Program-made: the position numbers and the translations under genes
In this document: positions 4,090 through 57,574 of the stretch, one piece after another
Position numbering within the stretch: position 1 is the first letter of the stretch
How the letters are laid out: every line of letters starts with the position of its first letter
Assembly: GCA_045632405.1 (NCBI GenBank)
Contig: JAZQWO010000054.1
Span: 2,291 to 66,290 of the forward strand
From: Eubacteriales bacterium
GTDB lineage: Bacteria; Bacillota; Clostridia; Oscillospirales; CAG-272
Reading direction: 5' to 3'
DNA: 64,000 nucleotides
Notes under the pieces: generated by a model
Databases searched by the model: none
What the model was told of the DNA's origin: nothing
What the model saw: only the letters and a program-made list of their open reading frames with translations

Positions 4090-4941
4090 ATGACAAAAGC
4101 TATTCTGAAAATACTCTCACTAATATTGGCTTTTATTTTGCTCGTACCGCTGGTGATTGCTTGCGGAGAGGAAAACCCCGAAAACGAGCAAACCGCGCTT
4201 CAACGCTTCGAGAAAATGAGCGAATACGAAAAAGCGTTTTTCATTCTGACAAATGATATTGCTGTAAAGAAAATCAGATCCGATGCTACCGCTAACGTTG
4301 CCTGCAAATATAAAGGCTATTCCCTTGTGGCATCCTTAGTTGGATTTACGGTGGAAATGGATGATGAAGCGGAATATTTTCTCTATTCCGAGCAAACCCT
4401 TTCATTAACAATTGCCGGTGGCTCGCAGGTTACACTTGCCAAGCAGGGCTATGCCGATGGAAAGGAATTTATATACACCGCCACCAACGGCTCAGGCAAG
4501 GGCTATTATGCGGAGTCAACAGTTGAAGCGATCAAAGAAAAGCGCCGCAAGCAGCTCGAAAGCGGTCCTGCCGATGACTTTGGTTTAAACGCTTCTAACT
4601 GCCAGGCGGCCTGCACACAAAATGCACACGGCGGTTGGGTTGCTACCTTTACAAATGTCGGCACAGACAGCTTGGGAGAGTTCAAAAAATACATTGATAT
4701 GTCCTTTGGCGACATTCTTGATTCATCCGACCTTATGGGAGTTACCTTAGAGGTTATTGTATCTGCAAATCTTAAGCCTGTTTCCATTAAGCTGGACTAC
4801 ATCTTTAAAGATGCAAATACAAAGCTCACGGTGGAATCAACCTTCACAATTGATGACGATGTTGAGCTACCAACGGTTGACTTGACAGGCTACACAAAAA
4901 AGTCAAGCCTTGGCAATAATTCACCGGGCGTTGGCATGTAA
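4090..4941 (+). CDS. lipoprotein of unknown function (paralog of 5553-6401)
   Basis: Signal peptide with lipobox LVIAC. Clear protein similarity to the next-but-one gene (DDFGLNASNCQ...GGWVATFTNVG versus DDFGLTKDNCQ...GSWVATYTDVT). Confidence 0.75.
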   Translation: MTKAILKILSLILAFILLVPLVIACGEENPENEQTALQRFEKMSEYEKAFFILTNDIAVKKIRSDATANVACKYKGYSLVASLVGFTVEMDDEAEYFLYSEQTLSLTIAGGSQVTLAKQGYADGKEFIYTATNGSGKGYYAESTVEAIKEKRRKQLESGPADDFGLNASNCQAACTQNAHGGWVATFTNVGTDSLGEFKKYIDMSFGDILDSSDLMGVTLEVIVSANLKPVSIKLDYIFKDANTKLTVESTFTIDDDVELPTVDLTGYTKKSSLGNNSPGVGM

Positions 4942-16670: not shown

Positions 16671-16850
16671 AAAAAATCCACCTGTGCTTCAGGTGGCGAA
16701 AAACGGCAGGGAGTGTCCATAAAACACGCCCAAAAGCCAACAACCTCTTCCATCCGGACTATCACCGTCGGTCTCGGAGTTGCACCGAGTCAACGCGCAC
16801 GCGCTTGCGGACTATACCGCCGATAAGGAATTACACCTATCCCTGAAGTA
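16671..16850 (-). promoter_or_regulatory. FMN riboswitch (RFN element) with terminator expression platform
   Basis: The minus strand reads CTTCAGGGATAGGTGTAATTCCTTATCGGCGGTATAGTCCGCAAGC...CTCGGTGCAACTCCGAGACCGACGGTGATAGTCCGGATGGAAGAG. It is followed by GCCACCTGAAGCACAGGTGG-TTTTTT. Confidence 0.9.
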
Positions 16851-16874
16851 TTACTATTTTATTCGTTTTTTAAT

Positions 16875-31455: not shown

Positions 31456-31587
31456 AGGTTGTATTGATTAAAATTAGATTGAATTTAACAAATTGTTCAC
31501 AATTGTATGGTACAATTAATTATATTTTTTCGCTTTAAAGCGTTAAAGTGTACTTTTATCTGCCCTCGGGCAAGGAAGGAGCCAACT

Positions 31588-32958
31588 ATGGCAACAGTAA
31601 AAAAAGAGCTTACCAAGCTGACCCCTCAGCTTATGTCTTATGTAGATAAATGCTCAATGAACACTACTATTGACCCTGAGCTATACACAAAATTCAATGT
31701 AAAGAGAGGCTTGCGTGACGTTGACGGTAAGGGCGTTGTGGCAGGTCTTACGGAAATTTCCGAAATCAACGCATTTTTAAATTGCGGTGAGAGCAAAATC
31801 CCCTGTGACGGTGAGCTTTACTACCGTGGCGTTAACATACAGGAGCTTGTTGGCGGCTTTTTGGCTGACGACCGCTTTGGATTTGAGGAAGCTATCTATC
31901 TTTTGCTTTTTGGTGCTTTGCCAACAAAGGAAGAGCTTTCTGACTTTGACAGCCTTTTGAAAAGATACAGGAGCTTGCCAAAGAATTTTGTCCGCGACGT
32001 GCTTATGAAGGCAAGCGGCAAGGACATGATGAACATTTTGGCGCGCAGTGTGCTCACCCTTTATGCCTTTGACGACAAGGCGGATGACACATCTATCCCT
32101 AACGTTTTGCGCCAATCATTGCAGCTTATTTCAGAATTACCGCTTTTAGCGGTTTACGCTTACAAGTGCTATGAATATTACGAAAAGAAAAAGAGCCTTG
32201 TTATTCACCAGCCTAAAAACAATTTATCTTTGGCGGAAAATATTCTTTATATGCTTCGTGATGACGGAAAATTCACTCCATTGGAAGCAAAAATCCTTGA
32301 CCTTGCTCTCGTTTTACACGCTGAGCACGGCGGCGGTAACAACTCCACATTTACAACACACGTTGTCACATCCTCAGGCACTGATACATATTCGGTAATT
32401 GCCGCATCCTTAGGCTCCTTGAAGGGTCCGCGCCACGGTGGTGCAAACGCCAAGGTTGTGGAAATGATTGACAACATAAAGAAGAATGTTAAAAACTACG
32501 GCGACGAGGAGGAAATCAAGAGCTACCTCACCAAAATACTTAACAAAGAGGTGTTTGACGGCAAGGGCTTGATTTACGGTATGGGTCACGCGGTTTACTC
32601 TCTTTCCGACCCACGTGCTATGATTTTCCGTGACTTTGTGGAAAAGCTCTCACGTGAAAAGGGCAAGGAAAAGGACTATCTCCTTTGCTCAACCATTGAG
32701 CGCGTTGCTCCTGCAGTTATTGCCAAGGAAAGAAAGATTTACAAGGGCGTTAGCGCCAACATTGACTTTTACAGTGGCTTTATTTACAATATGCTTGGCA
32801 TCCCTCGCGAGCTGTTCACCCCTATATTTGCAATTTCACGTATTGCAGGCTGGAGCGCACACCGTATGGAAGAATTGTTGCTTAACGGAAAGATTATCCG
32901 TCCTGCATATCAAAATATTTCACCAAGAGCGCCCTATACACCGCTTGAAGAAAGATAA
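31588..32958 (+). CDS. citrate synthase
   Basis: I chose the start MATVKKELT at 31588, behind a GGAAGGAG RBS. Motifs LVLHAEHGGGNNSTF, GPRHGGA and YGMGHAVY. Confidence 0.9.
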   Translation: MATVKKELTKLTPQLMSYVDKCSMNTTIDPELYTKFNVKRGLRDVDGKGVVAGLTEISEINAFLNCGESKIPCDGELYYRGVNIQELVGGFLADDRFGFEEAIYLLLFGALPTKEELSDFDSLLKRYRSLPKNFVRDVLMKASGKDMMNILARSVLTLYAFDDKADDTSIPNVLRQSLQLISELPLLAVYAYKCYEYYEKKKSLVIHQPKNNLSLAENILYMLRDDGKFTPLEAKILDLALVLHAEHGGGNNSTFTTHVVTSSGTDTYSVIAASLGSLKGPRHGGANAKVVEMIDNIKKNVKNYGDEEEIKSYLTKILNKEVFDGKGLIYGMGHAVYSLSDPRAMIFRDFVEKLSREKGKEKDYLLCSTIERVAPAVIAKERKIYKGVSANIDFYSGFIYNMLGIPRELFTPIFAISRIAGWSAHRMEELLLNGKIIRPAYQNISPRAPYTPLEER

Positions 32959-33107
32959 TACACACTCCCTCCACCGCGGATTTTGTTTTAGCTGTATTAC
33001 TTGCTCATACGTTGCGGTCCCCCTCCCTCGAAGAAGGAGGCTGGGTGTCCTGCATATCAAAATATTTCACCAAGAGCGCCCTATACACCGCTTGAAGAAA
33101 GATAATA
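32900..33107 (+). repeat. 61-nt perfect direct repeat of the citrate synthase 3' end (32900-32960 and 33047-33107) flanking an 86-nt family-2 element (32961-33046)
   Basis: Both copies were compared base by base. The element carries CCCTCCACCGCGG...CGTTGCGGTCCCCCTCCCTCGAAGAAGGAGGC. Confidence 0.85.
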
Positions 33108-33135
33108 GATACAAATTTCAAGAGCACTACACTTT

Positions 33136-33274: not shown

Positions 33275-34459
33275 ATGAAATTACGTAAAGTATTACTTAT
33301 TTTAGTTGTTATGGCCGCTTTGATGACGCTTTTGTCCTTCTCTGTTAGTGCAGCAAGCAATTTTAACATCACATGGGACCATGTTGAAAAATCCGAAAAA
33401 TCAACTGGCGGTGTCAACTGTTGGCATAACGATACTAAGGGCTTGCCCGGTGAGAGCGCAATGTTCGACGGCAACATCAACTCTGCTGGCAGTTGGTACT
33501 GCGGCAACGGATTTGCACTGCCAGAGGGCGAAACTGCTACCATCACCTTTATTGAGGAATTTGAAATCAACTCTGTAATTTTCTACGGTTGGTCCAACTG
33601 GAGCTACTTTGAAATCAGATTTCATGATGCAGCGGGCAACGAAACACTTCTTTTCGAAAGTGGCGGTTGGCAGGACACAACCGGTGCGGCGCACGACCTT
33701 GACATTTCCGGTATAAAGGCAAAGTCTATGACTATCAAAACCTTGGATTCCAAGGGCTTGAGAAACCATACATATACAGAGTTCATTATTAATGTTAGCC
33801 ACGAGCATTCATTTGACACATTTGTTGAGCTTATGATGCCACCAACATGCGTTCTTCCGGGTGCGGCTAAATACTCCTGCTACTGTGGTGAGGAGTCAGA
33901 AAAAAACATTGATGCAACAGGCAACCACAACATTGTTGATGACATCGTTTTCAGAAACGGCTTTGGTCAGCCCGGCTTTAAGGGCACAGTTTGCGAAACC
34001 TGCGACACCCAGGACAGCTTTGATGAAGCAAACGTTATCCCTGCTCTTTTCACTATTCTTGGCTACTCCGCAAATGAGGTGACAGGTGCTGTTCAGTTTG
34101 GCTTCGCTGTTCACTATGACGCTATTGCCATTTACAACTCACTAGCAGATGCTCCTCTTGAATTCGGTATCATCTCCACAACAAGAGCAGTTCTTGCAGA
34201 GGGCAATCCTCTCTTGCTTGGTCTTGAAGGACTTGAAAAAGCAAACGATAAGGTTGTTTTGAAGAATTGCACAAGCGAGGAATATGAAATTATCACTTAT
34301 ACCGTTTCAAAAATCCCTGAGGCTCACAGAGATACAGGCATCATCTTGTCTGCGTACATTTTCGACGGACTCGACGTTTTCTATGTAGGTGTTGACTCAT
34401 CCAAGGACGCTCAAGTAGTTACATATAACGATATTTTGAGTGCAGCTGCACAGTATTAA
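33275..34459 (+). CDS. secreted protein with a discoidin/F5-8 type C-like N-terminal domain and a C-terminal domain shared with 13171-14676
   Basis: Signal peptide. The segment ...AMFDGNINSAGSWYCGNG...ITFIEEFEINSVIFYGWSNWSYFEIRF... resembles a carbohydrate-binding jelly-roll. A Cys pair is followed by the ALFTILGYS... domain. Confidence 0.65.
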   Translation: MKLRKVLLILVVMAALMTLLSFSVSAASNFNITWDHVEKSEKSTGGVNCWHNDTKGLPGESAMFDGNINSAGSWYCGNGFALPEGETATITFIEEFEINSVIFYGWSNWSYFEIRFHDAAGNETLLFESGGWQDTTGAAHDLDISGIKAKSMTIKTLDSKGLRNHTYTEFIINVSHEHSFDTFVELMMPPTCVLPGAAKYSCYCGEESEKNIDATGNHNIVDDIVFRNGFGQPGFKGTVCETCDTQDSFDEANVIPALFTILGYSANEVTGAVQFGFAVHYDAIAIYNSLADAPLEFGIISTTRAVLAEGNPLLLGLEGLEKANDKVVLKNCTSEEYEIITYTVSKIPEAHRDTGIILSAYIFDGLDVFYVGVDSSKDAQVVTYNDILSAAAQY

Positions 34460-34470
34460 TAAAAGTAAAC

Positions 34471-34504
34471 AAAACAGGCAGAGAAAATTCTCTGCCTGTT
34501 TTTT
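34471..34504 (+). terminator. rho-independent terminator
   Basis: AAAACAGGCAGAGAAAATTCTCTGCCTGTTTTTT. Confidence 0.8.
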
Positions 34505-34528
34505 GTTATGATAAAAGGGATGCCGATA

Positions 34529-34730
34529 GCGTGATACTCTTAACGGAGTATCACGCTAACTCTATTCGCCTGCGGCGATATGATGCATTTGCTTCGCAAA
34601 TATGATGTTGCTCCACTTCGGTCGCAATGATGCGATGTTTGCCACAATGTGCCGTCAGGCACACATCATTAGGCGTAGCCGTCATCATTAGGCGTAGCCC
34701 AACATCATTTGCCGAAGGCAAACATCATCC
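34529..34730 (+). repeat. structured repeat: the 26-nt hairpin GTGATACTC-TTAACG-GAGTATCAC followed by hairpin-ladder A (word ATGATG / CATCAT)
   Basis: The hairpin at 34531-34554 is identical to the first 26 nt of the 356-nt elements. ATGATG occurs at 34580, 34602 and 34627. CATCAT occurs at 34664, 34683, 34703 and 34723. Mini-hairpins lie between the words. Confidence 0.8.
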
Positions 34731-34752
34731 AAAAAACGCGCAAACGGTGCGC
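34731..34752 (-). terminator. terminator of the 142-aa ORF
   Basis: The minus strand reads GCGCACCGTTTGCGC followed by GTTTTTT. Confidence 0.6.
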
Positions 34753-34809
34753 AAGTGTAGGTAAAAACGCAAAAAAGGTGCGTAAAGTCGGCAAGTTGGC
34801 TTTGAACTC

Positions 34810-35238
34810 TTATGTCAAATCTAGAGAAGTAAAGCCTAAAGCGTTAAGCTTCTTTTGAAAGGCATAGAACTCTGAATACTTCTTTGCATACGGATTCCAG
34901 CCGATCTTTTTCAAGAATCGTGTAAATGCCGTTTTCTTCAATGGTATGTAAAATCTTGTATGGTGAGTGGGTGTAAAGAACTCAAAGAAAGGAAAACATC
35001 TGCCGCCAATGCATTTTAATCTACCCTCTCGTTGTTCGGGCGATATGCCCTGCGCCAAATCGAAGTTTTTAGCGCATTCGTCGAGATTGATTTTTTCGGT
35101 TTCTCCATCACTGTTTTTGAAAACCAACTCTTCCGAGGTAATTTCAATAATGTTTCCAACCGGTATTTTTATTACAGTAGCTTCGTCTTCTATATGATAT
35201 GCCTCTTGAATTGATTTGTAAAATTCGTCCCAACTCAT
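34810..35238 (-). CDS. hypothetical cytoplasmic protein, no recognisable family
   Basis: 142-aa ORF with its own promoter, RBS (GGCGGTGA) and terminator. No signal peptide or TM segment. Confidence 0.6.
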   Translation of the reverse strand: MSWDEFYKSIQEAYHIEDEATVIKIPVGNIIEITSEELVFKNSDGETEKINLDECAKNFDLAQGISPEQREGRLKCIGGRCFPFFEFFTPTHHTRFYIPLKKTAFTRFLKKIGWNPYAKKYSEFYAFQKKLNALGFTSLDLT

Positions 35239-35261
35239 GTTTTCACCGCCTTTTCACCTTT

Positions 35262-35290
35262 ATTATACCACACTCTCGCAAATAAATCAA
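35262..35290 (-). promoter_or_regulatory. promoter of the 142-aa ORF
   Basis: TTGATT, 17 nt, TATAAT with a TG extension on the minus strand. The -35 overlaps the first hairpin arm of ladder B. Confidence 0.5.
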
Positions 35291-35465
35291 GGCGAAGCCT
35301 TGTATATCATCCGCAACTTGTTGCGGTATATCATCAATGCGAAGCATTGTATATCATCAAGCCGCAGGGAGATGCACGCTGGCGCGTGATGAGATACAGC
35401 CCCAAAGGGGCTGATGATATGCACCGCACGTTGTGCGGTGATGATATGCCAAGCCTGCGGCTTGG
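35288..35465. repeat. hairpin-ladder B (word TATATCATC / GATGATAT)
   Basis: TATATCATC occurs at 35303, 35327 and 35350. GATGAGATA/GATGATAT occurs at 35388, 35413 and 35440. The hairpins include CAAGGC-GAA-GCCTTG, CGCAAC-TTG-TTGCG, AATGC-GAA-GCATT, CAGCCCC-AAA-GGGGCTG and CCAAGCC-TGC-GGCTTGG. Confidence 0.8.
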
Positions 35466-35471
35466 ATAAAC

Positions 35472-35508
35472 AAAAAAGGAACTTTTGGTAAACAAAAGTT
35501 CCTTTTTT
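35472..35508. terminator. terminator behind the tRNA pair (bidirectional shape)
   Basis: AAAAAA-GGAACTTTTG-GTAAA-CAAAAGTTCC-TTTTTT. Confidence 0.75.
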
Positions 35509-35510
35509 GT

Positions 35511-35595
35511 TGGTGGGGGATGGTGGATTCGGACCACCGAAGTCAGTGACAACAGATTTACAGTCTGCCCCCTTTGGCCGCTCGGGAAATCCCCC
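35511..35595 (-). tRNA. tRNA-Tyr (anticodon GUA), long variable arm
   Basis: The reverse complement reads GGGGGATTTCCCGAGCGG...GACTGTAAATC...GGTGGTCCGAATCCACCATCCCCCACCA. Confidence 0.9.
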
Positions 35596-35610
35596 AAATG
35601 TTGCAAGATT

Positions 35611-35685
35611 TGGAGCTGGCGAACGGAGTCGAACCATCAACCTGCTGATTACAAATCAGCTGCTCTGCCATTGAGCCACGCCAGC
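35611..35685 (-). tRNA. tRNA-Thr (anticodon UGU)
   Basis: The reverse complement reads GCTGGCGTGGCTCAATGGCAGAGCAGCTGATTTGTAATCAGCAGGTTGATGGTTCGACTCCGTTCGCCAGCTCCA. Confidence 0.9.
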
Positions 35686-35706
35686 ATATTATCTTGCAAC
35701 GGTGAT

Positions 35707-35735
35707 ATTTTATCACATAAATATGAGTTTGTCAA
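35707..35735 (-). promoter_or_regulatory. promoter of the tRNA-Thr/tRNA-Tyr unit
   Basis: TTGACA, 17 nt, TAAAAT on the minus strand, about 22 nt before the tRNA 5' end. Confidence 0.55.
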
Positions 35736-35763
35736 TAGTATTTTTGAAAAAATTTTAAAATTC

Positions 35764-36126
35764 TTATTTGTTTAAAAATTCCTTTAGCTTTTGAAAGCTT
35801 TCCGCACTTATACAATGCTCTATTTTACAGCTGTCCTCGTATGCGGTTTTCTCGCTCACGCCAAGGGTCATAAGTGCCTTTGCTATGACCAGGTGGCGCT
35901 CATATACGGACATTGCAATTTCCATACCCTTTTCTGTTAGGTCAAGATACCCGTTTTCATCAACTGTAATATAGCCCTCCTCGCGGAAGTTTTTCATAGC
36001 TACGCTAACGCTTGGCTTGGATACACCAAGCTCATTTGCCACATCTATGCTTCTAACACAACCCTTTTCCTTTTTGATGGAAAAAACGGCTTCAAGATAG
36101 TTTTCAGCAGATTCCTTTATTATCAT
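35764..36126 (-). CDS. DtxR-family metal-dependent transcriptional regulator (DNA-binding plus dimerisation domains only)
   Basis: Motifs ENYLEAVFSIKKEKGCVRSIDVANELGVSKPSVSVAMKNF and ...YERHLVIAKALM... Confidence 0.8.
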   Translation of the reverse strand: MIIKESAENYLEAVFSIKKEKGCVRSIDVANELGVSKPSVSVAMKNFREEGYITVDENGYLDLTEKGMEIAMSVYERHLVIAKALMTLGVSEKTAYEDSCKIEHCISAESFQKLKEFLNK

Positions 36127-36155
36127 AGCACACCTCCGAAAGAATTACTGCTTAT

Positions 36156-36184
36156 ATTGTACCACAAATAAGCTTTTTTGTCAA
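36156..36184 (-). promoter_or_regulatory. own promoter of the DtxR-family gene
   Basis: TTGACA, 17 nt, TACAAT with a TG extension, in the 62-nt gap after copA. Confidence 0.45.
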
Positions 36185-36188
36185 ACCA

Positions 36189-38618
36189 TTATTTAACTGC
36201 ATAGCCTTGCGCTGAAATTGTTGCCTTTACCTTTTCAATATCGCATTTACCAAACACGGCAACTGTGCCCTTTTTGTGGCTTGGCTCGGCTTTTTCTACA
36301 CCCTCTATGGCTTCAACTGCCGCTTTAACGCGTGCCTCACAGTGTGGGCACATCATACCGTCAACCTTTATGATTATTCCTGCTTCCTTCTTCTTACCAA
36401 ACATTTCATTTTCTCCTTTATCTAATTTAACAAAATTAAGTCTCAACGCATTTGTCACAACACAAAAGCTGGACAGGCTCATTGCCAATGCACCAAACAT
36501 AGGGTTAAGCTCCCATCCTAGCAAGGCAATAAAAGCGCCTGCCGCCAAGGGAATTCCTATGATGTTATAAATAAATGCCCAGAACAGATTTTCCTTGATG
36601 TTTTTCAAGGTTTTTCGGCTCAGCATAATGGCATTTACCACACCCAAAAGGCTATTGTTCATCAGCACCACCGATGCTGAATCAATGGCAATTTGCGTGC
36701 CCGCTCCAATGGCAATACCTGTATCGGCACTTGTCAAGGCAGGGGCATCATTTATGCCGTCCCCAACCATTATTACATTGCCATCTTGCTTCAATTTTTC
36801 AATTTCCATCGCCTTGTCATTTGGCATAACATCGGAAATAATTTCGTCAACACCTGCAAGACTGCCTATCGCCTTGGCGCTGTTTTCGTTATCACCTGTG
36901 AGCATAACCACCTTTACGCCCATTTTCTTCAGCTCTGAAATGGCATAGGCGCTATCCTCTTTTATTTCATCGCGAATAGCAATCACACCCACAGACCTGC
37001 CGCCAAGTGTGAAAAACAGGGGTGTTTTGCCTTCCTTGGAAAGGCGCTGGAAAAGCTCCCTCTCCTTGTCAGTTGCCACAGAAGAAATATGCTTATAGCT
37101 ACTACCCACTATTTCCTGTCCGTCAACAACCCCAGACACTCCGCTGCCTGCCATAGCTTTAAAATCCTCTACCGCCTTGCAGGAAAGCTCCATTTCCTCG
37201 GCTTTTTTCACAATAGCGCGCCCCAGCGGATGCTCGCTTTTGCTTTCCAAGGCGTAAGCGTATTCCAAAAGCTCCCTTGATGTTATATCAAAGGGGATTA
37301 CATCAATCACCTGTGGCTCGCCACGGGTGATTGTTCCTGTTTTATCAAGAACTACAATATTTGCTTTGCCCGCATTTTCAAGGGCGGTTGCATTTTTGAA
37401 AAGAATTCCCCGTCTTGCTCCCACTCCGTTTCCAACCATAATCGCCACAGGAGTTGCAAGTCCCAACGCACAGGGACAGCTGATAACAAGGACAGAAATT
37501 CCTCTTGCCAAGGCATAGCCAAGGTCTGCCCCTGTCAAGCTCCATATGATAAAGGTAACAAGGGCGATTCCCATAACCACAGGGACAAAAAATCCGCTGA
37601 CCTTATCTGCAATTCTTGCAATAGGCGCTTTTGACGAAGCGGAGGCGCTAACAGCTTTTATGATTTCTCCCAAAACGGTATTTTCGCTATCTGTTTCCGC
37701 TTGGCATTTTATATAGCCTGTGTGGGTGGTTGTGCCTGCATACACATGGTCTGCTGTGGTTTTGTCAACAGGCATACTCTCGCCTGTCAAAGCAGACTCG
37801 TCAACGGCACATTCTCCCTCGGTGATAACCGCATCAACAGGGATGCTACCGCCAGAGCGCACGATAAATACGTCGCCCTTTTTAAGACTGCCGGCAGAAA
37901 CCTCTGTTTCCACCCCGTCAACCAGAACGACCGCCGTTTTTGGCTTCAATGATATCAATTCCTTCAACGCATTTGTGGTCTTGCCCTTAGAATAAGCTTC
38001 AAGGGCTTTTCCGACGGTTATAAGCACAAGTATCATACCTGCCGACTCAAAATAAAGGCTATGCAAAAGATGCTGGCTTTTTGCCATTACAAAAAGACAG
38101 ACAACGCTATATCCAAAGGAAACCCCTGACCCTAAGGCGACGAGAGTGTCCATATTGGGCGCGCCCTTGATAAGTCCCATAAAGCCGTTTATAAAGAATT
38201 TGCGGTTGATAATGAGCAGAACCCCGCTTAGCACCAGCTCCAAAATACCAACGGCTAAGCTATTGCTTGCCAAAAAGCTTGGTAGTGGAAAATTCCACAT
38301 AACGTGCCCCATTGACACGTACATAAGAAATAGCAAAAACACAAGAGATACCGCAAGTCTTTTTAACAGTCTCGGTGTTTCCTTGTCCTTTAGCTCATCG
38401 TCGCTTGACACTTGGTTGCCGCTTTTCTTGGCGGCACCGTAGCCTGCGTTTGCAACCGCCTCAATTATTTCACCCGATGTAACAGTACCGCATACTGTCA
38501 TTGAGTTAGTTAAAAGATTAACTGAGCAGGAATCCACTCCGTCAAGAGCTTTGACTGCTTTTTCCACTCTCGCAGCACAGGCGGCGCAGCTCATACCGCT
38601 AACTACATAATATTCCAT
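36189..38618 (-). CDS. copA: copper-translocating P1B-type ATPase with N- and C-terminal heavy-metal-associated domains
   Basis: GMSCAACAARVE at the N-terminus, the CPC motif (SCPCALGLATP), DKTGT, GDGINDAP, and a second HMA domain (GMMCPHCEARVK) at the C-terminus. Confidence 0.9.
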   Translation of the reverse strand: MEYYVVSGMSCAACAARVEKAVKALDGVDSCSVNLLTNSMTVCGTVTSGEIIEAVANAGYGAAKKSGNQVSSDDELKDKETPRLLKRLAVSLVFLLFLMYVSMGHVMWNFPLPSFLASNSLAVGILELVLSGVLLIINRKFFINGFMGLIKGAPNMDTLVALGSGVSFGYSVVCLFVMAKSQHLLHSLYFESAGMILVLITVGKALEAYSKGKTTNALKELISLKPKTAVVLVDGVETEVSAGSLKKGDVFIVRSGGSIPVDAVITEGECAVDESALTGESMPVDKTTADHVYAGTTTHTGYIKCQAETDSENTVLGEIIKAVSASASSKAPIARIADKVSGFFVPVVMGIALVTFIIWSLTGADLGYALARGISVLVISCPCALGLATPVAIMVGNGVGARRGILFKNATALENAGKANIVVLDKTGTITRGEPQVIDVIPFDITSRELLEYAYALESKSEHPLGRAIVKKAEEMELSCKAVEDFKAMAGSGVSGVVDGQEIVGSSYKHISSVATDKERELFQRLSKEGKTPLFFTLGGRSVGVIAIRDEIKEDSAYAISELKKMGVKVVMLTGDNENSAKAIGSLAGVDEIISDVMPNDKAMEIEKLKQDGNVIMVGDGINDAPALTSADTGIAIGAGTQIAIDSASVVLMNNSLLGVVNAIMLSRKTLKNIKENLFWAFIYNIIGIPLAAGAFIALLGWELNPMFGALAMSLSSFCVVTNALRLNFVKLDKGENEMFGKKKEAGIIIKVDGMMCPHCEARVKAAVEAIEGVEKAEPSHKKGTVAVFGKCDIEKVKATISAQGYAVK

Positions 38619-38647
38619 TTTTGCGCCTCCTTTACTTTTCTACATTT

Positions 38648-38675
38648 ATTATATCATTTATTTTTTTCTTGTCAA
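38648..38675 (-). promoter_or_regulatory. copA promoter
   Basis: TTGACA, 16 nt, TATAAT on the minus strand. Confidence 0.5.
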
Positions 38676-38706
38676 TCAAAGAGCCGAAATTACTTCTTTA
38701 AAAAAA

Positions 38707-39092
38707 CGTGGCGCTATTAGCGTGATACTCTTAACGGAGTATCACGCCGTCAAATCCGTCTTCGACGGGTGAAATCCACCTACGGTGGATGAAATCGCTT
38801 TCGCGATGAAATCCTGCTTCGCAGGGTTGTTTTTAGACGGATTTGATTTCATCCAAGGCAACGCTTTGGATTTCATCTGAACGAAGTGAAGATTTCATCG
38901 TTGCTGTGCAACGATTTCATTAAACCAACAGAAAAAGAGGAAACTTTTCGGCTATTAACCGATTTGTTTCCTCTTTCTGTTTGTATAGGGGTTTGGGCTT
39001 AGCCCATTTGCGTTTGACTAGTCAAATGCGATGCTCGCACTTAGCGGTGTTTTCAAATTCTCCGCTAAGAATATCACACATTTAGCGCCACG
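38707..39092 (+). mobile_element. 356-nt TIR-bounded non-coding structured element (38722-39077) sitting between the arms of the feo terminator stem (38707-38716 / 39083-39092)
   Basis: TIRs are GTGATACTCTTAACGGAG and CTCCGCTAAGAATATCAC. Ladder C (GATGAAATC / GATTTCAT) spans 38749-38920. The outer stem CGTGGCGCTA/TAGCGCCACG has a T7 run on the minus strand. An inverted homologous copy lies at 42887-43242. Confidence 0.7.
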
Positions 39093-39094
39093 CA

Positions 39095-39286
39095 TTATTT
39101 TTCTTCATTTTTTGGAATTCCACAGCCACAGGAGCAGCCGTTGCAGTTGCCTGAGCAGGTCTTGCTATCAGGACAACCGATACATTTTTTGCCACTCTTT
39201 TTTGCGTGGATTATATAGGCGATAGCGCCGCCTACCAAAGCCCCAACAATTGCAATAGCAACTACGGTTGAAAGTACAGGTCCCAT
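39095..39286 (-). CDS. FeoB-associated Cys-rich membrane peptide
   Basis: 63 aa. One TM helix and then CIGCPDSKTCSGNCNGCSCGCG. It abuts the feoB stop. Confidence 0.8.
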   Translation of the reverse strand: MGPVLSTVVAIAIVGALVGGAIAYIIHAKKSGKKCIGCPDSKTCSGNCNGCSCGCGIPKNEEK

Positions 39287-41337
39287 TATGCAGCCACCTT
39301 TTCTCCCTTTTTGCCATTTGCTTCAGCCTTTTGTCTTTTGTTGTTTTTTATAATAAGATAAACCAACACAAAAATCACCAAAGCCACAATTGCCCAACCG
39401 AGAATTGGCATCCAGAGGGACGCATATGAAAGCTCAGAGCTAAAAACAGTTCCAAAGAATGTAATCAAGAAGCTTAAGGTGAAGCCAACACTGAATTGCA
39501 AGCCAATTCCTGCAAACAACCACTTTTTGCTATTCATTTCAGAATTCATAGCACCGATTGCCGCAAAGCAAGGCGGTGTGAAAAGGTTGAACACAAGATA
39601 TGATATTGCCAAAACGCCAGGAATAACGGAAAGCTCGCCCAAGCCACCAACCGCCTCCAAATCGTCATTGATAGCGAATGCAAAGCAAACGGAAAGGGTT
39701 GCAACAACATTTTCCTTTGCGATAAAGCCTGTGATAGATGCTGCCGCCAGCTTCCACAGATACCCAACAGCTATTACACCGAAAACAGGCGCAAAAAGAT
39801 AGCCAAATGGAGTTGCGATTGTGGCAAGAATTGAGTCTGACGCATCCTCTGCCGCCAATGAGAAGGTCCAGGTAAATGAGGACATCAGATGAACAACCGC
39901 GTTACATACAAGAATGATAGTTCCTGCCTTTACAACATAAGACCAGCCGCGCTGGAGCATTGATTTTACAGCACCCCAGATGCTTGGTGCCTTATATTCG
40001 GGCAATTCAATTATGAAATAGGATTTTTTCCTTCTTTGTCCTGTTACAAGGTTAACAAGCAACGCGCCAAAGAAGATAATAACAATTCCCATAAAGTACA
40101 TCAGAGGAGCTACCCACCATTTTTCCGCAAAGAACCTTGAGAACAAGGCAATTACAGGAAGCTTAGCGCCACAAGGCATAAAGGGGGCAAGCATTGCCGT
40201 TGCACGGCGTTCCCTCTCGTTGCGGATGGTACGTGATGCCATAACGCCTGGGATGGCACAACCAACACCGATAACAAAAGGAATTACGGATTTACCCGAA
40301 AGACCAACCTTTTTGAAAATAGGGTCTAAAACAACGGACACGCGCGCCATATAGCCACAGTCCTCAAGAAGTGCAATCAAGAAGTACATCACCATAACGA
40401 GAGGCAAAAAGCCCACAACTGCGCCAACACCGCCAATGATACCGTCAACGATTAGTGAGGACAAAAACGCGGGAGCATTTTCAAGCCAACCAGAAACTGC
40501 CTCTCCAAACCAATCAATAACATTCACAAGTCCCCAAACGTGATATTCGTTTGCTTCGCCTGCGTCGAAGGTATAGCCCTCTGCAAGCCAAACACCCGGT
40601 CCTGCCTGAGAAATCCAGAAAACGAGGAACATAACTGCAGCAAAAATCGGAATACCAAGCCACTTGTTGATAAGAATATCGTCTATTTTGTCTTGCTTGT
40701 TTTTCTCGTTTGTATTTATTTTGCGAGCCTCAACCTCGCTAACTATCTTATTAACAAATGCAAATCTTTTCCTATCTGCCTTTTCTGCAAGCTCCTTGTC
40801 GGTAATGTCACTCTCCGCCTGCACAAATGGGGCTCTTTGTGTTTTGCCAACCGATTCAGTAGCCTTTTTCACCACGTCCTCAAGTCCTTTTGCGGAAATG
40901 GACACGGTATCAATAACAGGGCAACCAAGAAGCTCGGACAAGCGCGCGGAATCAATTTTTGTTTCCTTTTTCTTATTAATATCCGCCTTGTTAAGAGCAA
41001 CAACCACAGGAATACCAAGCTCCAAGAGCTGTGTTGTGAAAAACAAGCTGCGGCTAAGGTTAGTTGCATCTACAATGTTAATGATAGCATCCGGCTTTTC
41101 GTTTTTTATATAGTCACTTGTAACACCCTCCTCAGATGTAAAGGGCGTCATAGAATATGTGCCGGGCAAATCCACCGCCATAATGTCCGCGCCGCCGCAC
41201 AATGACTTTTTTATGGGATGAGATTTTTTATCAACAGTAACACCCGCCCAGTTGCCCACTTTTTCCTGACTTCCTGTCAAAGCATTGAACATAGTGGTTT
41301 TGCCACTGTTGGGGTTACCTGCTAATGCGATTATCAT
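39286..41337 (-). CDS. feoB: ferrous iron transporter B
   Basis: N-terminal G domain (ALAGNPNSGKTT) and a polytopic C-terminal permease. Confidence 0.95.
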   Translation of the reverse strand: MIIALAGNPNSGKTTMFNALTGSQEKVGNWAGVTVDKKSHPIKKSLCGGADIMAVDLPGTYSMTPFTSEEGVTSDYIKNEKPDAIINIVDATNLSRSLFFTTQLLELGIPVVVALNKADINKKKETKIDSARLSELLGCPVIDTVSISAKGLEDVVKKATESVGKTQRAPFVQAESDITDKELAEKADRKRFAFVNKIVSEVEARKINTNEKNKQDKIDDILINKWLGIPIFAAVMFLVFWISQAGPGVWLAEGYTFDAGEANEYHVWGLVNVIDWFGEAVSGWLENAPAFLSSLIVDGIIGGVGAVVGFLPLVMVMYFLIALLEDCGYMARVSVVLDPIFKKVGLSGKSVIPFVIGVGCAIPGVMASRTIRNERERRATAMLAPFMPCGAKLPVIALFSRFFAEKWWVAPLMYFMGIVIIFFGALLVNLVTGQRRKKSYFIIELPEYKAPSIWGAVKSMLQRGWSYVVKAGTIILVCNAVVHLMSSFTWTFSLAAEDASDSILATIATPFGYLFAPVFGVIAVGYLWKLAAASITGFIAKENVVATLSVCFAFAINDDLEAVGGLGELSVIPGVLAISYLVFNLFTPPCFAAIGAMNSEMNSKKWLFAGIGLQFSVGFTLSFLITFFGTVFSSELSYASLWMPILGWAIVALVIFVLVYLIIKNNKRQKAEANGKKGEKVAA

Positions 41338-41362
41338 ACTTTTCTCCTTTCATTGCAAGGAA

Positions 41363-41380
41363 AGTTAGTCAACACTAACT
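41363..41380. promoter_or_regulatory. palindromic operator-like site AGTTAGTCAACACTAACT
   Basis: Inverted arms AGTTAGT/ACTAACT in the feoA-feoB gap. A near-identical 18-mer lies at 41643-41660. Confidence 0.4.
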
Positions 41381-41403
41381 CCTGCGCAAAAAAATATTAA
41401 AGA

Positions 41404-41622
41404 TTATTCTCTGATTTCAATAACCTCGCAAAGATTTTTGTCAAAGCTATATCTGCTATCCTTGATAGATACAGTGCAACCGCTTCTGCGCTGTGCAATT
41501 ACCGTAATTGGCTCTCCACTGTAGCAGCCAAGAGAAAACAAGAAGGAATTCAATTCATCATCGTCCGTGTCAACACGCACAACGATATATTCCACGCCCT
41601 CTTTTGCGTCACGTAAGGTCAT
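41404..41622 (-). CDS. feoA: ferrous iron transport protein A
   Basis: I chose the start MTLRDAKEGVEY at 41622, behind an AGGAGGG RBS. It is a 72-aa SH3-like FeoA. Confidence 0.85.
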   Translation of the reverse strand: MTLRDAKEGVEYIVVRVDTDDDELNSFLFSLGCYSGEPITVIAQRRSGCTVSIKDSRYSFDKNLCEVIEIRE

Positions 41623-41642
41623 AAAAACCCTCCTTTCAAGCA

Positions 41643-41660
41643 AGTTAGTCTTGCCTAACT
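41643..41660. promoter_or_regulatory. palindromic operator-like site AGTTAGTCTTGCCTAACT
   Basis: It lies between the -10 box and the RBS of feoA and has the same arms as 41363-41380. Confidence 0.45.
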
Positions 41661-41666
41661 GCGTAT

Positions 41667-41695
41667 ATTTTAGCCTACTTACTGTCATTTGTCAA
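41667..41695 (-). promoter_or_regulatory. feoA promoter
   Basis: TTGACA, 17 nt, TAAAAT on the minus strand. Confidence 0.6.
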
Positions 41696-41834
41696 GTACC
41701 TTTCAAAAGTTTTTTAAAATTTTAGCAATTATGCCCTCGCAAAGCAAAATTTTACATAAAAATTTTATGCAACTTTACAGAGAAAAAATACGTGCAAGCC
41801 GCCTCTTGGCTCGCACGTATTTTTAATATACTTT

Positions 41835-42770
41835 TCAATACACATAGAAAGGCTCGCCAAAAGCGCCCTCGCAATAGTAAATGCTAAAGGTATCACCAAT
41901 TTCGTACCGACGGTAATCCTGACCGTAAACAGCTATTTCGGTTTTTTCACCGTTGATTTCTACAATCAGATAATAGTCCGTAGAGTCGCCCGAGGTATCC
42001 TTGTCCTTGCCTATTATTTCCTGCTCCATTTTATATGGCTCACTTGTGTCAAGAGCGAAGTTCAAGTGATTTGCACTGCTCCAGGTAAGGGCGAAGAAAA
42101 TAAAGCAAACTATAAAAATGGATGCAATTTTTTCGCTTTTTCTGTTGTCCTTCAACCTTGCCGCGCCTGTGAAAAGCAAATACCCCGCCAAAGCACCAAG
42201 CAAAACGCCAATTATTAAGGCAGGCAGCCAAAACTTCACACTTCCCTTTTCGCCTTCAACATAATTATACATTCTCATATCGTTAAAGAACAAGAGAAAA
42301 TCCAAGCAAACGCCTGTTACCATAATGCCTCTGATTTTAAGCTCCCTGTAACCGCCGAAAAGTGAGGTAAAGGAAAGCAGAAATACAAGGAACCCATACC
42401 AAATGGTTATCATATCGTAAATCAAAAGCACCTTGCCGCCAAAAAACAGAGTCAGTATCCAACCGACGCCAAGCATAACCAAGCCTATTCTGAATGGTAT
42501 AACTCTTTGCTCCTTATTGGCTATGGCGCATATAATAAACGGCACGCCTATCAATAGTCTGATAATAACATTAAAGGCAAAATTATCTGCCAAGGCGGGC
42601 ACTCTTGCAATTAAAATCAACCATACCAAAAACGCGGCAATGGCTACCCACATTATATTAAATTTGGGGAATTTTCTTTTTTTCTTTATACCAAAGGTTT
42701 CCTCGTCAATGGCGCTGTTTTCCGTCGCTGCGCACTCCTCAGTTGTGTTTTCTATATCAAATTCGTCCAT
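41835..42770 (-). CDS. hypothetical polytopic membrane protein
   Basis: 311 aa. An acidic N-terminus, about 7 hydrophobic helices and a roughly 70-aa C-terminal soluble tail. No motif recognised. Confidence 0.6.
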   Translation of the reverse strand: MDEFDIENTTEECAATENSAIDEETFGIKKKRKFPKFNIMWVAIAAFLVWLILIARVPALADNFAFNVIIRLLIGVPFIICAIANKEQRVIPFRIGLVMLGVGWILTLFFGGKVLLIYDMITIWYGFLVFLLSFTSLFGGYRELKIRGIMVTGVCLDFLLFFNDMRMYNYVEGEKGSVKFWLPALIIGVLLGALAGYLLFTGAARLKDNRKSEKIASIFIVCFIFFALTWSSANHLNFALDTSEPYKMEQEIIGKDKDTSGDSTDYYLIVEINGEKTEIAVYGQDYRRYEIGDTFSIYYCEGAFGEPFYVY

Positions 42771-42872
42771 ATGCTCAACTCCTTTATTAAATTATAACAG
42801 AAAAACGCCCCTGTGTCAATCAACCAACGGTTGATTATCTCAACTGTAAATATTGATTTTGTCAAAACAAAA

Positions 42873-43256
42873 ACGGCAGATATAGGGTGATGTCCTTAGC
42901 GGAGAATTATTGCTTTGACAAAAGTGCAAGCATCGCATTTGACTGGTCAAACGCAATATGGGCTAAGCCCAAACCCTTATTACAAGCAGAAAGAGAGAAC
43001 AAATTGGGAAAACCGAAATGTCCTCTCTTTTTCTGTTGGATAAATGAAATCGTGGTTGAACCACGATGAAATCTTCGCACGGCTCAGATGAAATCCAAGG
43101 TCAAGACCTTGGATGAAATCAAATCCGTCCGAGCTTAACCCTGCGAAGCAGGATTTCACCGCGAAGCGATTTCATCCACCATAGGTGGATTTCACCCGTC
43201 GAAGACGGATTTGACTGCGTGATACTCCGTTAAGAGTATCACTCTATCTCTGCCGT
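42873..43256 (-). mobile_element. inverted second copy of the 356-nt structured element (42887-43242) between the arms of the EF-G-like gene terminator stem (42873-42885 / 43244-43256)
   Basis: The reverse complement aligns over its full length with 38722-39077 and has the same length. The first 26 nt are identical. The outer stem ACGGCAGATATAG/CTATCTCTGCCGT differs from the stem at the other copy. Confidence 0.7.
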
Positions 43257-43269
43257 TTTTTGCTATTAT

Positions 43270-45315
43270 TTATTTCTTTTCGTTCTTTGGTACTTTAGCT
43301 GCCAACTGTGAGGGCACTTCCTCGTAGCGAACGAAGTGGAATGTAAAGTCGCCTCTGCCCTGTGTCATTGCGCGAAGAGCAATAACGTAGTCAACCATTT
43401 CGGACTTTGGAACCTCAGCCTCAACGATTGTATATTTTGGGCGCTTTGGATTTGGCTCCATACCCATTACTCTGCCGCGACGCTTGTTAAGGTCGCCCAT
43501 TACGTCACCAACCATATGCTCAGGCACGCTAACCTTCAAAACACCAACAGGCTCAAGGAGTACAGGATTTGCATTTACAAGCTCCTTATATGCCAAGCGA
43601 GCCGCAAGCACGAAGGAAATTTCGTTAGAGTCAACGTCGTGGTATGAGCCGCCTGTCAAATCTGCCGCCAAATTAACCATTGGGTAGCCGAGAAGCACGC
43701 CTTCCTTCATAGCCTCGCGCAAGCCCTTTTCAACCGCTGGGTAGTAGCCCTTTGGAACTTCGCCGCCTACAACGCTCTGTGTAAAGGTCAAGCCGTCATC
43801 CTCACCGTGTGAGAATGTAATCTTAACGTGACCGTACTGACCAGCGCCACCTGACTGCTTCTTGTGCTTTCCTTCTGTTTCAATTCTCTTCTTGATTGTT
43901 TCTCTGTATGCAATCTTTGGTGTTTCAAGCTTAACGTTAACACCGTATCTGTTCTTGAGCTTACATACAACTGTATCAAGGTGAACGTCACCGATACCCT
44001 TGAGAAGCAGTTCGCCTGTTTCAACAAAGTTTTCGTACTTAACGGTCTTGTCCTCGTCAAGAATCTTTGCAATAGAGGTAGCAACCTTGTCCTCGTCCTT
44101 GCCGTCGGTCTTAATTGCCATTGTCATATTAGCCTCAGGGAACTCAATCTTCTTATATTCCATATCAGAGGTTTCACAAAGTGTATCGTTGGTATTTGTA
44201 TTAGCAAGCTTGGAAATAACACCTATATCACCGCAAGCAAGGCTATCAACCTCAGTCTGCTTCTTACCGCAGATGGTGAATATCTTAGCAAACTTTTCAA
44301 CCTGACCTGTTGTTGTGTTCTTGAGCATCATATCCTTCTTGAGCTCACCGTTCATAACCTTAAAGAAAGAAACACGGCCTACAAATGGGTCAGCAATTGT
44401 CTTAAATACCATCAAGCGGCACTCGCCCTCGCGCTCGATAGCAACATCAGCACCGTTAACATCCTTTTCAACCTTCTTAGCAGTATGTCTTGGGAAGGAC
44501 TCAGCTATCGCGGTCAAGATTGAGTAAATACCTCTCATATTTTCGGATGAGCCGCACCATACAGGAACGATAGCGCCGGAAATCATACCCTCGTGGAGAG
44601 CTAAGGCACATTCCTCCTGTGTAAATCTTTCACCTGCGAAGAACTTTTCAAGCATTTCCTCGTTGGTCTGCGCAACGGCTTCCATAAATACTTCGCCGTA
44701 CTTTTCTGCAACCGCACGACGGGACGGAGTCATATCCTCCTCCTGTCTTTCACCGTTTGGCAAGTAACGGAAGCACTTCATAGTCATTAGGTCAATCATC
44801 ATTGTACCTGTTGCTTCCTTAACAGGAATAAATACAGGACAAAGTGCGTTGCCAAACTCGTCACGGAGCTGGTTGAATACGCTGTCAAAATCAGCATCGG
44901 GGTCGTCACATTTGTTTACAAAGAATGCTCTTGGAATTCCTGCTTCAAGCGCGTTATACCAAGCAATCTCCGCGCCAACCTCTAAGCCTGCCTTTGCGTC
45001 AATATTGATAAGAGCCGCATCAGCTACACGCAGTGCGCTTGCAACCTCACCTGCAAAGCCCAAAAAGCCTGGGCAGTCAAGCAAGTTAATCTTAATGCCG
45101 TTCCACTCAAGGTTAACAACGGACAAGCCGATAGAAATTCCTCTCTTTATTTCCTCGCTGTCATAGTCGGAAACAGTATTACCGTCGCAAATTCTGCCAA
45201 GACGGTCTGTTGCCTTTGCCTTGAAAAGCATTGACTCGATTGTAGCGGTCTTACCGCTGCCACTGTGTCCGATAATGCACACGTTTCTTACATTGTTAGT
45301 GATAAATTTTGCCAT
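43270..45315 (-). CDS. elongation factor G-like translational GTPase (non-canonical paralog type)
   Basis: 681 aa with five EF-G domains. The G1 motif GHSGSGKTA replaces the canonical AHIDAGKTT. Confidence 0.8.
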   Translation of the reverse strand: MAKFITNNVRNVCIIGHSGSGKTATIESMLFKAKATDRLGRICDGNTVSDYDSEEIKRGISIGLSVVNLEWNGIKINLLDCPGFLGFAGEVASALRVADAALINIDAKAGLEVGAEIAWYNALEAGIPRAFFVNKCDDPDADFDSVFNQLRDEFGNALCPVFIPVKEATGTMMIDLMTMKCFRYLPNGERQEEDMTPSRRAVAEKYGEVFMEAVAQTNEEMLEKFFAGERFTQEECALALHEGMISGAIVPVWCGSSENMRGIYSILTAIAESFPRHTAKKVEKDVNGADVAIEREGECRLMVFKTIADPFVGRVSFFKVMNGELKKDMMLKNTTTGQVEKFAKIFTICGKKQTEVDSLACGDIGVISKLANTNTNDTLCETSDMEYKKIEFPEANMTMAIKTDGKDEDKVATSIAKILDEDKTVKYENFVETGELLLKGIGDVHLDTVVCKLKNRYGVNVKLETPKIAYRETIKKRIETEGKHKKQSGGAGQYGHVKITFSHGEDDGLTFTQSVVGGEVPKGYYPAVEKGLREAMKEGVLLGYPMVNLAADLTGGSYHDVDSNEISFVLAARLAYKELVNANPVLLEPVGVLKVSVPEHMVGDVMGDLNKRRGRVMGMEPNPKRPKYTIVEAEVPKSEMVDYVIALRAMTQGRGDFTFHFVRYEEVPSQLAAKVPKNEKK

Positions 45316-57367: not shown

Positions 57368-57489
57368 GCCTTCTCCAGCGGAGAAGGGGGACCAAGCTTG
57401 CTTGGTGGATGAGGAGAGCATTTTTAGATTGCACTATTTTGTCCTCCTCATCCGTCTGCTTCGCATCCACCTTCCCCGCTGGGGAAGGC
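57368..57489 (-). repeat. family-2 intergenic element, reverse orientation, larger variant
   Basis: The reverse complement ends ...CTTGGTCCCCCTTCTCC-GCT-GGAGAAGGC. Hairpins are CCTTCTCC-AGC-GGAGAAGG, GGATGAGGAG...CTCCTCATCC, TGC-TTC-GCA and CCTTCCCC-GCT-GGGGAAGG. Confidence 0.65.
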
Positions 57490-57574
57490 TTTTTAGTGCA
57501 TCAGCCCCTTTTTGTTGAACTTCAAATTAAGCGTTCATCCGTTTGGATAAATTTTAAAACATTCAATAAAAACC

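Follow-up and report, generated by a model that had tools for sequence, protein, structure and literature searches.

Hairpin-ladder modules in a gut Clostridia contig as the variable core of a terminator-targeting repeat family

Described relatives and the modules of the window

Repetitive extragenic palindromes (REPs), bacterial interspersed mosaic elements (BIMEs) and REP doublets forming hairpins (REPINs) of Escherichia coli and Pseudomonas consist of short extragenic units, each made of a tag and a hairpin, that are clustered in opposite orientations at gene ends and terminators and are associated with an HUH tyrosine transposase acting on single-stranded DNA. REP arrays are thought to arise by alternative processing of REP units (PMC3733652). 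TIRtrons, or TIRYTs, are genes resembling those of REP-associated tyrosine transposases (RAYTs) that lie between long terminal inverted repeats not related to the GTAG REPs, and these inverted repeats form moderately abundant families elsewhere in the genome (Di Nocera et al. 2013, PMC3733652). A third relative is the Gut-1 motif (Rfam RF01706), about which the original paper says only that it occurs in human-gut sequences, and which was rated "certainly RNA" on covariation (Weinberg et al. 2010, PMC2864571). Here we analyzed four intergenic modules in a stretch of 64,000 nucleotides (the window) from contig JAZQWO010000054.1 of a Eubacteriales bacterium (assembly GCA_045632405.1). In each of these modules, termed ladders, a short word is repeated in direct copies with a mini-hairpin between copies, and the reverse complement of the word is then repeated in the same way. 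The ladder modules form the variable core of a family of mobile repeats that target terminators. This feature is real and statistically solid, is already catalogued in part as Gut-1, is otherwise undescribed in the literature searched, and is best filed with the REP/BIME/REPIN-TIRtron kind.

The elements and modules of the window are as follows.

34527-34558, plus strand: left terminal hairpin of the module A element, TAGC-GTGATACTC-TTAACG-GAGTATCAC-GCTA, with the terminal-repeat core at 34531-34551
34566-34730, plus strand: module A, ATGATG three times (plus one degenerate copy), then CATCAT four times, with mini-hairpins between
34810-35238, minus strand: open reading frame (ORF) of 142 aa between A and B, a strain-variable cargo of no known family
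35288-35465, minus strand: module B, inverted relative to A, TATATCATC three times, then GATGAGATA/GATGATAT three times
38701-38717, no strand: left arm of a host bidirectional terminator split by element C, AAAAAAACGTGGCGCTA
38718-39082, plus strand: element C, about 360 bp
38720-38747: left terminal hairpin of element C
38747-38817, plus strand: Gut-1 (RF01706) match in the first half of module C, 52.3 bits against a gathering score of 50
38749-38920: ladder module C
38841-38922, minus strand: weaker Gut-1 match in the second half of module C, 34.5 bits
38928-38981: internal bidirectional terminator of element C
38985-39042: conserved block of element C, GGGTTTGGGCTTAGCCC..GCGTTTGACTAGTCAAATGC
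39057-39077: right terminal repeat of element C
39083-39100, no strand: right arm of the host terminator split by element C, TTAGCGCCACGCATTATTTTT
42869-42885 and 43244-43260: host terminator arms around element C'
42882-43248, minus strand: element C', an inverted copy of C with 88% identity
42887-42907: right terminal repeat of C'
42922-42980: conserved block of C'
43044-43215: ladder of C'
43148-43217, minus strand: Gut-1 match in C', 58 bits
43217-43246: left terminal hairpin of C'

The word positions listed in the initial annotation, which was made from the sequence alone, were all found again, and the architecture is real in all four modules: a word of 6-9 nt in three or four copies, followed by its reverse complement. 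Each module was compared with 1000 dinucleotide-preserving shuffles. The pattern of module A (ATGATG three times, then CATCAT four times) was matched by 0 of 1000 shuffles, as were the patterns of C and C' (TGAAAT, 3/4 and 4/3), and the exact 6-mer pattern of module B (ATATCA, 3/2) was matched by 1 of 1000. Perfect hairpins, defined by a stem of at least 5 and a loop of 3-5, number 5, 7, 5, and 5 in the four modules, whereas shuffles had on average 0.6-0.7 and never more than 4. The RNA folding z-scores are -3.0 (A), -5.7 (B), -4.9 (C), and -5.3 (C'). The heptamer GCGAAGC or its complement is enriched (18 occurrences in the window versus 9.5 ± 2.8 expected), but the earlier count of at least nine in the modules and related patches was slightly too high, with six in the four modules and one at 57.4 kb.

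The modules had been described as sharing an architecture but not a sequence. That does not hold for C and C', which are copies of one element, and the initial annotation overlooked that the modules lie inside a mobile element. A perfect conserved hairpin of 28 nt, GCGTGATACTC-TTAACG-GAGTATCACGC, stands before A, C, and C' and is part of the same feature; the copy before A is identical to that before C. The first hairpin of module A (aactctattcgcctgcggcga) is also the first hairpin of the commonest subfamily elsewhere. No right terminal repeat was found for the module A element. A CRISPR-like reading was ruled out, the repeats being only 6-9 nt long and the spacers palindromic, and so was an assembly artefact, as the same modules recur in independent assemblies.

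The words are identical within each module and regularly spaced at 19-25 nt, as would be expected of iterons, i.e. binding sites for a sequence-specific DNA- or RNA-binding protein in, for example, an origin or operator array, with the hairpins serving only as spacers. At least nine words occur in otherwise homologous elements, three of them in the window, and as many proteins would be needed. In addition, the spacers are strongly constrained to stay perfect hairpins, and insertions of the elements occur in terminators throughout the chromosome. We consider such a role very improbable.

Compared with the REP/BIME/REPIN kind, the ladders share short extragenic units of tag and hairpin, a position at gene ends and terminators, an association with an HUH tyrosine transposase of single-stranded DNA, and units of opposite orientation that could pair within a cluster, the last as indicated by mirrored loops and predicted folds. 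They differ in several respects. A classical REP has a GTAG tag and conserves its hairpin among the copies in a genome, whereas the ladders have tags of GTGA type or another word and conserve the tag while the hairpin is free. Units alternate in BIMEs and stand in two blocks in ladders, and, unlike a REP or BIME, the ladder array is embedded in an element of about 360 bp with its own terminator and terminal repeats. The hosts differ as well, being Clostridia for the ladders and Proteobacteria for REPs, BIMEs, and REPINs. The text of the TIRtron paper (PMC3733652) contains no mention of Clostridia or Firmicutes, of terminator targeting, or of internal tag-hairpin arrays, and the literature searched on RAYTs and REPINs in Firmicutes and on miniature inverted-repeat transposable elements (MITEs) in Clostridia terminators gave no description of the ladder element.

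Insertion into host terminators and change between strains

The mobility of the element is seen at the site of C. In strain L017, of the same species and with 98% identical flanks, exactly 38722-39082 is missing and the terminator hairpin at this spot is intact, the empty site reading AAAAAAACGTGGCGCTA-CT-TAGCGCCACGCATTATTTTT. In the window, element C takes the position of the loop of this hairpin, and comparison of this one empty site with the filled one allows either a 2-nt TT duplication or no duplication. Elements C and C' end in 21-nt terminal inverted repeats (GTGATAYTCTTARCGGAGWAT). Mobility is shown by the absence of the element from L017, with the terminator intact, and by C and C' being inverted copies with such ends. 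As single-stranded DNA, element C has a predicted fold of -82.7 kcal/mol (z = -10.2).

Scanning species-representative genomes with the terminal motif gave at least 119 loci, and those listed all lie in metagenome-assembled genomes (MAGs) of Clostridia from gut or rumen (Oscillospiraceae, Acutalibacteraceae, Christensenellaceae, Ruminococcus, and others). A complete element usually measures 340-400 bp and has the order left hairpin, ladder, bidirectional terminator, conserved block, right repeat. When 36 complete elements were compared pairwise, some pairs from different species-representative genomes were 97-98.5% identical (98.5% at the top). In 33 of the 33 scorable elements, the flanks are the two complementary arms of a host terminator, whose median length is 12 nt. 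By their word, the elements of other genomes fall into at least seven subfamilies (GTGATAT, GTGAAGT, GTGATGT, GTGAAAT, GTTATGA, ATGAATT, and GCGATATA), to which the window adds the words ATGATG and GATGATATA. Neither a phage nor a plasmid vehicle is indicated, since the terminal motif had no match in IMG/VR viral contigs and element C none in PLSDB plasmids.

These properties recall MITEs and the palindrome-associated elements derived from IS200/IS605: they, too, are small elements without coding sequence that end in terminal inverted repeats, are present or absent depending on the strain, and have a gene-carrying partner with the same ends. Unlike MITEs, they sit at the apex of a terminator hairpin and have an expandable array in their interior, and a target-site duplication, if there is any, would lie in the TT or TTT on both sides of most copies.

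Some related observations were made on the elements themselves. The terminal hairpin TAGCGTGATACTC-TTAACG-GAGTATCACGCTA also occurs alone at the apex of a host terminator, whose stem is merely lengthened, in L034 (~510-570) and in L055, L097, and L103; it may represent a minimal element or what an excision left behind. A mini-element of some 45 nt (GGGGTTCCCCGAAGCGAA...GAGCTTTGGGG) is nested at differing places inside the ladder elements of L027, L126, L133, L129, and L021, and takes the place of a hairpin unit in L027 and L126. In the window, feoA-feoB and an ORF of 311 aa lie between the inverted copies C and C', which are 4.5 kb apart and may delimit an invertible or composite segment. No strain with the opposite orientation of this segment was found, and an exact-protein look-up of the 311-aa ORF, beside C', returned no match.

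The stretch between a 394-aa gene and tRNA-Tyr (34522-35500), which holds modules A and B, is a strain-variable hotspot (L006, L008, L009, L010). In 97%-identical strains the ORF of the A-B interval has 147 aa (L006) or 126 aa (L010), in neither case of a known family, or is absent (L008, L009). An unrelated sequence of 190 bp, for which no Rfam family matched, replaces A, the ORF, and B in L008 and L009, and ends in an inverted copy of the 3' end of tRNA-Tyr. Strain L006 has the same hairpin at the site of module A, followed by a different ladder with GTGATAT words, and B-type half-modules on both flanks of its ORF.

This variable ORF, with half-modules on both of its sides in L006, would be expected if the modules were structure-specific recombination sites that bound gene cassettes, like integron attC or pdif sites, and were recognized as folded DNA by a recombinase. 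Two further observations point the same way: the 11-6-11 layout of the left terminal hairpin resembles that of a tyrosine-recombinase core site, with the 6-nt loop flipped relative to the ladder in L035 and L124, and varied cargo ORFs occur in elements with the same ends. The likeness to attC lies in a would-be recognition of structure rather than sequence and in imperfect palindromes beside variable small ORFs; the modules differ in being arrays of many hairpins over 165-180 bp, where attC has one bulged hairpin with R and L boxes. A domain scan of the ten ORFs around the modules revealed no integron integrase or other recombinase, cargo is absent from 33 of the 36 complete elements, and only one variable locus was seen. 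Moreover, the enzyme gene that was found with the ends encodes an HUH transposase, not a tyrosine or serine recombinase. We therefore regard cassette recombination as improbable.

On a finer scale, the arrays vary unit by unit. The second half of module B has three or four units among 97-98% identical strains: L010 keeps four, whereas the window and L001 each lack a different one. The third strain thus shows differential unit loss from a four-unit array, which ruled out a wholesale replacement of hairpins in module B. One strain has lost a second-half unit with the first half unchanged. Stems change on both sides within the species (e.g. AATGC/GCATT versus AACAC/GTGTT). The initial annotation had suspected traces of a generative process, and this is borne out by unit gain and loss between strains, by two adjacent identical units in module A (TAGGCGTAGCC), and by a duplicated block within the ladder of L117. 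Three contigs (L003, L004, and L002) end inside modules A or B, at window positions 34566-34586, 35370-35377, and 35422. The elements are probably under-represented in MAGs, because the arrays break short-read assemblies.

Oriented units and the Gut-1 model

We analyzed the polarity of the units in 58 modules from other genomes, counting distinct hairpins. First-half loops are TNC/TNNC in 47 cases and GNA/GNNA in 6, and second-half loops are GNA/GNNA in 31 cases and TNC/TNNC in 2. The loop asymmetry reported for the window is therefore genuine and general, and B is indeed inverted relative to A, the tag strand of its first half being the minus strand. The 58 modules contain 105 distinct first-half and 71 distinct second-half hairpins, and only the tag is constant. 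Second-half stems, read on the plus strand, have 7 G.T mismatches and 0 A.C mismatches. Because loop polarity is tied to the word, and because G.T prevails over A.C, each unit is an oriented object composed of tag and hairpin, and such objects lie on one strand in the first half and on the other in the second. The ends of the element have the unit format too in the commonest subfamily: the left end starts with GTGATAC (GTGATAYTC...), and the right end has a small hairpin and, after it, ATATCAC or ACATCAC. The plus strand is the more stable one in the first half in 51 of the 58 modules, with G.U-closed hairpins on the tag strand. As a test of the strand that matters, these data conflict: wobble pairs next to the tag point to the tag strand, and loop types and internal G.T mismatches to the anti-tag strand.

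The anti-word matches the word in every case, across at least nine different words. This had been read as covariation, and the matching stands, but the words never vary inside a subfamily, so there is no true pairwise covariation. The stacked four-way junctions that had been predicted are unsupported, since a match of word and anti-word is equally expected from one tagged unit on opposite strands. Module C and its copy C' do differ by the two compensatory pair changes noted earlier (CGTTGC/GCAACG versus CGTGGT/ACCACG). Predicted folds pair the word with the anti-word, both in module B, whose minimum-free-energy fold is the full ladder, and in an RNAalifold consensus of 13 modules, making such pairing thermodynamically plausible. 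A coupling of unit numbers between the halves, as expected of a selected rod, was not found in 30 modules of the GTGATAT family, where the half-lengths are independent (r = -0.03). Module C and every subfamily have a conserved alternative helix from the module start to its center (e.g. ctattcgcc and ggcgaatag) that closes the first half alone and competes with the ladder.

The architecture had been reported as belonging to no described Rfam family, which is wrong. The first halves of C and C' score above the Gut-1 gathering score, the second half of C and module A (23.9 bits) fall below it, and B has no match. A clean Rfam match had been named beforehand as grounds for rejection; it removes the novelty of the half-module and leaves the architecture unaffected. 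The Gut-1 model consists of three hairpins with GUGAAAU-like linkers, a layout found in C and, with other words, in A, B, and other subfamilies. Among 16 related loci, the threshold is reached almost only by the GTGAAAT subfamily, with copies of the GTGATAT family below it. In the raw Gut-1 seed alignment, the anti-word array lies in the unmodelled 3' flank (e.g. GUGAUAU four times, then AUAUCAC four times, in BAAZ01000095), and the word differs between seeds. The ladder architecture is therefore general and Gut-1 covers half of it: the Gut-1 "small RNA" is the first half of one ladder subfamily, the model being a half-module of essentially one word. The Gut-1 description mentions neither the palindromic second half nor the terminal repeats, and says nothing of insertion into terminators, of polymorphism between strains, or of a link to a RAYT. 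Besides Gut-1, a permissive-threshold Rfam scan of 34300-43500 gave only tRNAs and noise for the remainder of the element, and in the literature searched RF01706 is cited by no paper other than the original one.

These matches raise the question of a functional structured RNA, a Gut-1 small RNA or 3'-UTR element that is transcribed from the left end to the internal terminator and is merely carried by the element; the word:anti-word rod would then act as, e.g., an exonuclease block, a protein sponge, or a regulator. Gut-1 scores above the gathering score and the rating of Weinberg et al. (2010, PMC2864571) are in line with this, as are the RNAalifold helices and hairpins of the 13 modules, with 8 pairs changed on both sides, the full-ladder fold of module B (z = -5.7), and the conserved U.G pairs that close first-half hairpins on the plus strand. 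The bidirectional terminator directly follows the ladder, and 18 of 27 elements have a gene directed into their ladder side. In 26 of 29 cases a gene is directed into the opposite end. This is also the end at which the upstream gene comes in for 7 of 9 tandem contexts, and its transcript would be terminated internally, short of the ladder. A promoter for the ladder was looked for and none was found. The mirror-image loop types mean that stable GNA/GNRA loops never run throughout one strand, unit number varies independently in the two halves, and the words are identical within a module rather than covarying helix by helix. Gain, loss, and swap of units between 97%-identical strains are unlike a conserved RNA, and the maintenance of palindromes in DNA would likewise yield two-sided changes. 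An RNA function is in our view unlikely, yet it is the strongest of the competing explanations.

For Gut-1, an orphan listed since 2010 without a function or a known host, these results provide a concrete identity as half of a mobile-repeat core, and the mobile repeat that contains it is widespread in uncultured gut and rumen Clostridia. They also call for caution, in that hairpin covariation in repeated DNA alone is no proof of an RNA gene.

A RAYT-like transposase and the proposed mechanism

The initial annotation had suggested an HUH/RAYT-type enzyme. Such a gene is found in relatives with the same terminal repeats, but not in the window. Locus L059 is an element of 844 bp with exactly these ends that contains a promoter, a degraded RAYT-like ORF, and a DUF7660 ORF; a match to NCBIfam REP_Tyr_transpos (E = 1.3e-8) was obtained with the C-terminal fragment of this degraded ORF. 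A homology search with the joined RAYT fragments of L059 gave 678 matches, including intact homologues of 170-200 aa. The intact proteins score 64.5-72.2 bits against REP_Tyr_transpos (NF047646; E = 1e-18 to 4e-20) and match Pfam Y1_Tnp below threshold; they are relatives rather than equivalogs. Their sole solved-structure match is E. coli TnpA-REP (4ER8; E = 6e-8 for P0001), with NHLHIMV of P0001 aligned to EHMHCIW (HUH) and NYIYENP to DYIYINP (YxY, the catalytic tyrosine region). An intact RAYT-like gene lies between near-identical ends in L167 and between variant ends, inside a terminator, in L139. With their RAYT-like gene flanked by the same inverted repeats, L059, L167, and L139, but not the window itself, fit the description of REPIN-RAYT systems and of TIRtrons or TIRYTs.

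A metagenome scan with the shared RAYT promoter yielded 120 loci, of which about 37 have the terminal-repeat core some 46 nt upstream; about a dozen then continue with the transposase and others with different cargo. Other RAYT loci have classical GTAGGGG REP doublets, as repeats separate from the ladder tags, between the terminal motif and the promoter, a place that is held by a ladder in L091, L226, and L260. In L095, the coding sequence of an intact RAYT-like ORF (4054-4566) itself contains an inverted repeat of the classical REP type (GTAGGGGACGGCGCCCTCGACGTCCC ... GGGACGTCGAGGGCGCCGTCCCCTAC).

We favor, with a probability of about 0.58, the interpretation that the ladders are the fast-changing core of small non-autonomous mobile elements of gut Clostridia that depend on a putative RAYT-like HUH enzyme. 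The full element sits at the apex of a host intrinsic-terminator hairpin, to which it brings its own bidirectional terminator. The ladder amounts to a pair of opposed arrays whose REP-like units occupy the plus strand in the first half and the minus strand in the second. Each unit comprises a short C-poor tag (GTGATAT, GTGAAGT, GTGATGT, GTGAAAT, GTTATGA, ATGATG, or others) and a freely variable hairpin; the second half has the reverse-complement word and the mirror-image loops because the units lie on opposite strands. Arrays grow and shrink by single units, which would happen between identical tags through slippage or enzyme cutting at the tag, and stems remain perfect through rapid two-sided changes. 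A RAYT-like HUH tyrosine transposase of the TIRYT type probably makes and moves the family at the single-stranded-DNA level. It would act on the tags, with the hairpins mattering as single-stranded DNA, and pairing of word and anti-word would produce a compact rod as a consequence of the layout, not as its purpose.

Several findings weigh against this interpretation. Here the tag is constant and the hairpin free, the reverse of the classical REPs, and the presence of three tags within one 64-kb window is awkward for sequence-specific recognition by one enzyme. There are signals at the RNA level, namely the Gut-1 covariation, the G.U-closed hairpins of the tag strand, and the terminator directly after the ladder. 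The RAYT-like proteins stay below the NCBIfam curated cut-off of 80 bits, tblastn with the RAYT fragments detected no RAYT-like gene in the window, and a RAYT gene follows the shared promoter in only about a quarter of the loci. The GTAGGGG REP doublets in many RAYT loci may be the true substrate of the enzyme, in which case the terminal repeats could be handled otherwise. Finally, most copies have TT or TTT adjoining the element on both sides, with no clear target duplication.

A variant of this interpretation places mobility at the level of the unit: [hairpin + tag] units of about 20 nt would be the smallest mobile units, excised as single-stranded DNA by a RAYT-like HUH enzyme that reads only the tag of 7-9 nt plus any hairpin. 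An excised unit would be pasted 3' of another copy of the tag, and a plain word...anti-word stem would thereby become decorated on both arms. We consider this doubtful and somewhat less probable than a functional RNA. If it were true, such events would be recorded in the arrays, and what is called the "Gut-1 RNA" would have been produced at the DNA level and not be an RNA gene.

The ladders extend the REP/RAYT world, known mainly from Proteobacteria, to Clostridia in an unusual form in which the tag is conserved and the hairpin free; if confirmed, this would inform what HUH transposases really read. The elements split host terminators and supply a replacement. They also change unit by unit between strains and could thus serve as strain markers.

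Further repeats and structures were noted elsewhere in the window. Another hairpin-rich intergenic patch (57380-57500) contains a long helix between GGTGGATGAGGAG (57404-57416) and CTCCTCATC..CACC. One arm of this helix is broken by 15 nt (57453-57467) bearing a GCTTCGC mini-hairpin and a duplicated CATC, an interruption that resembles a single step of adding a hairpin and a duplicated word. The patch is similar to the GGAGG/CCTCC-rich cargo of elements L106 and L111. A direct repeat of 66 nt (32900-32965 and 33047-33112; 97% identical, 147 bp apart) is located at the 3' end of a 483-aa ORF (31507-32958), and its copy number differs in strains L002 and L009. An FMN (flavin mononucleotide) riboswitch at 16738-16854 on the minus strand (98.7 bits) is ordinary and unrelated to the ladders.

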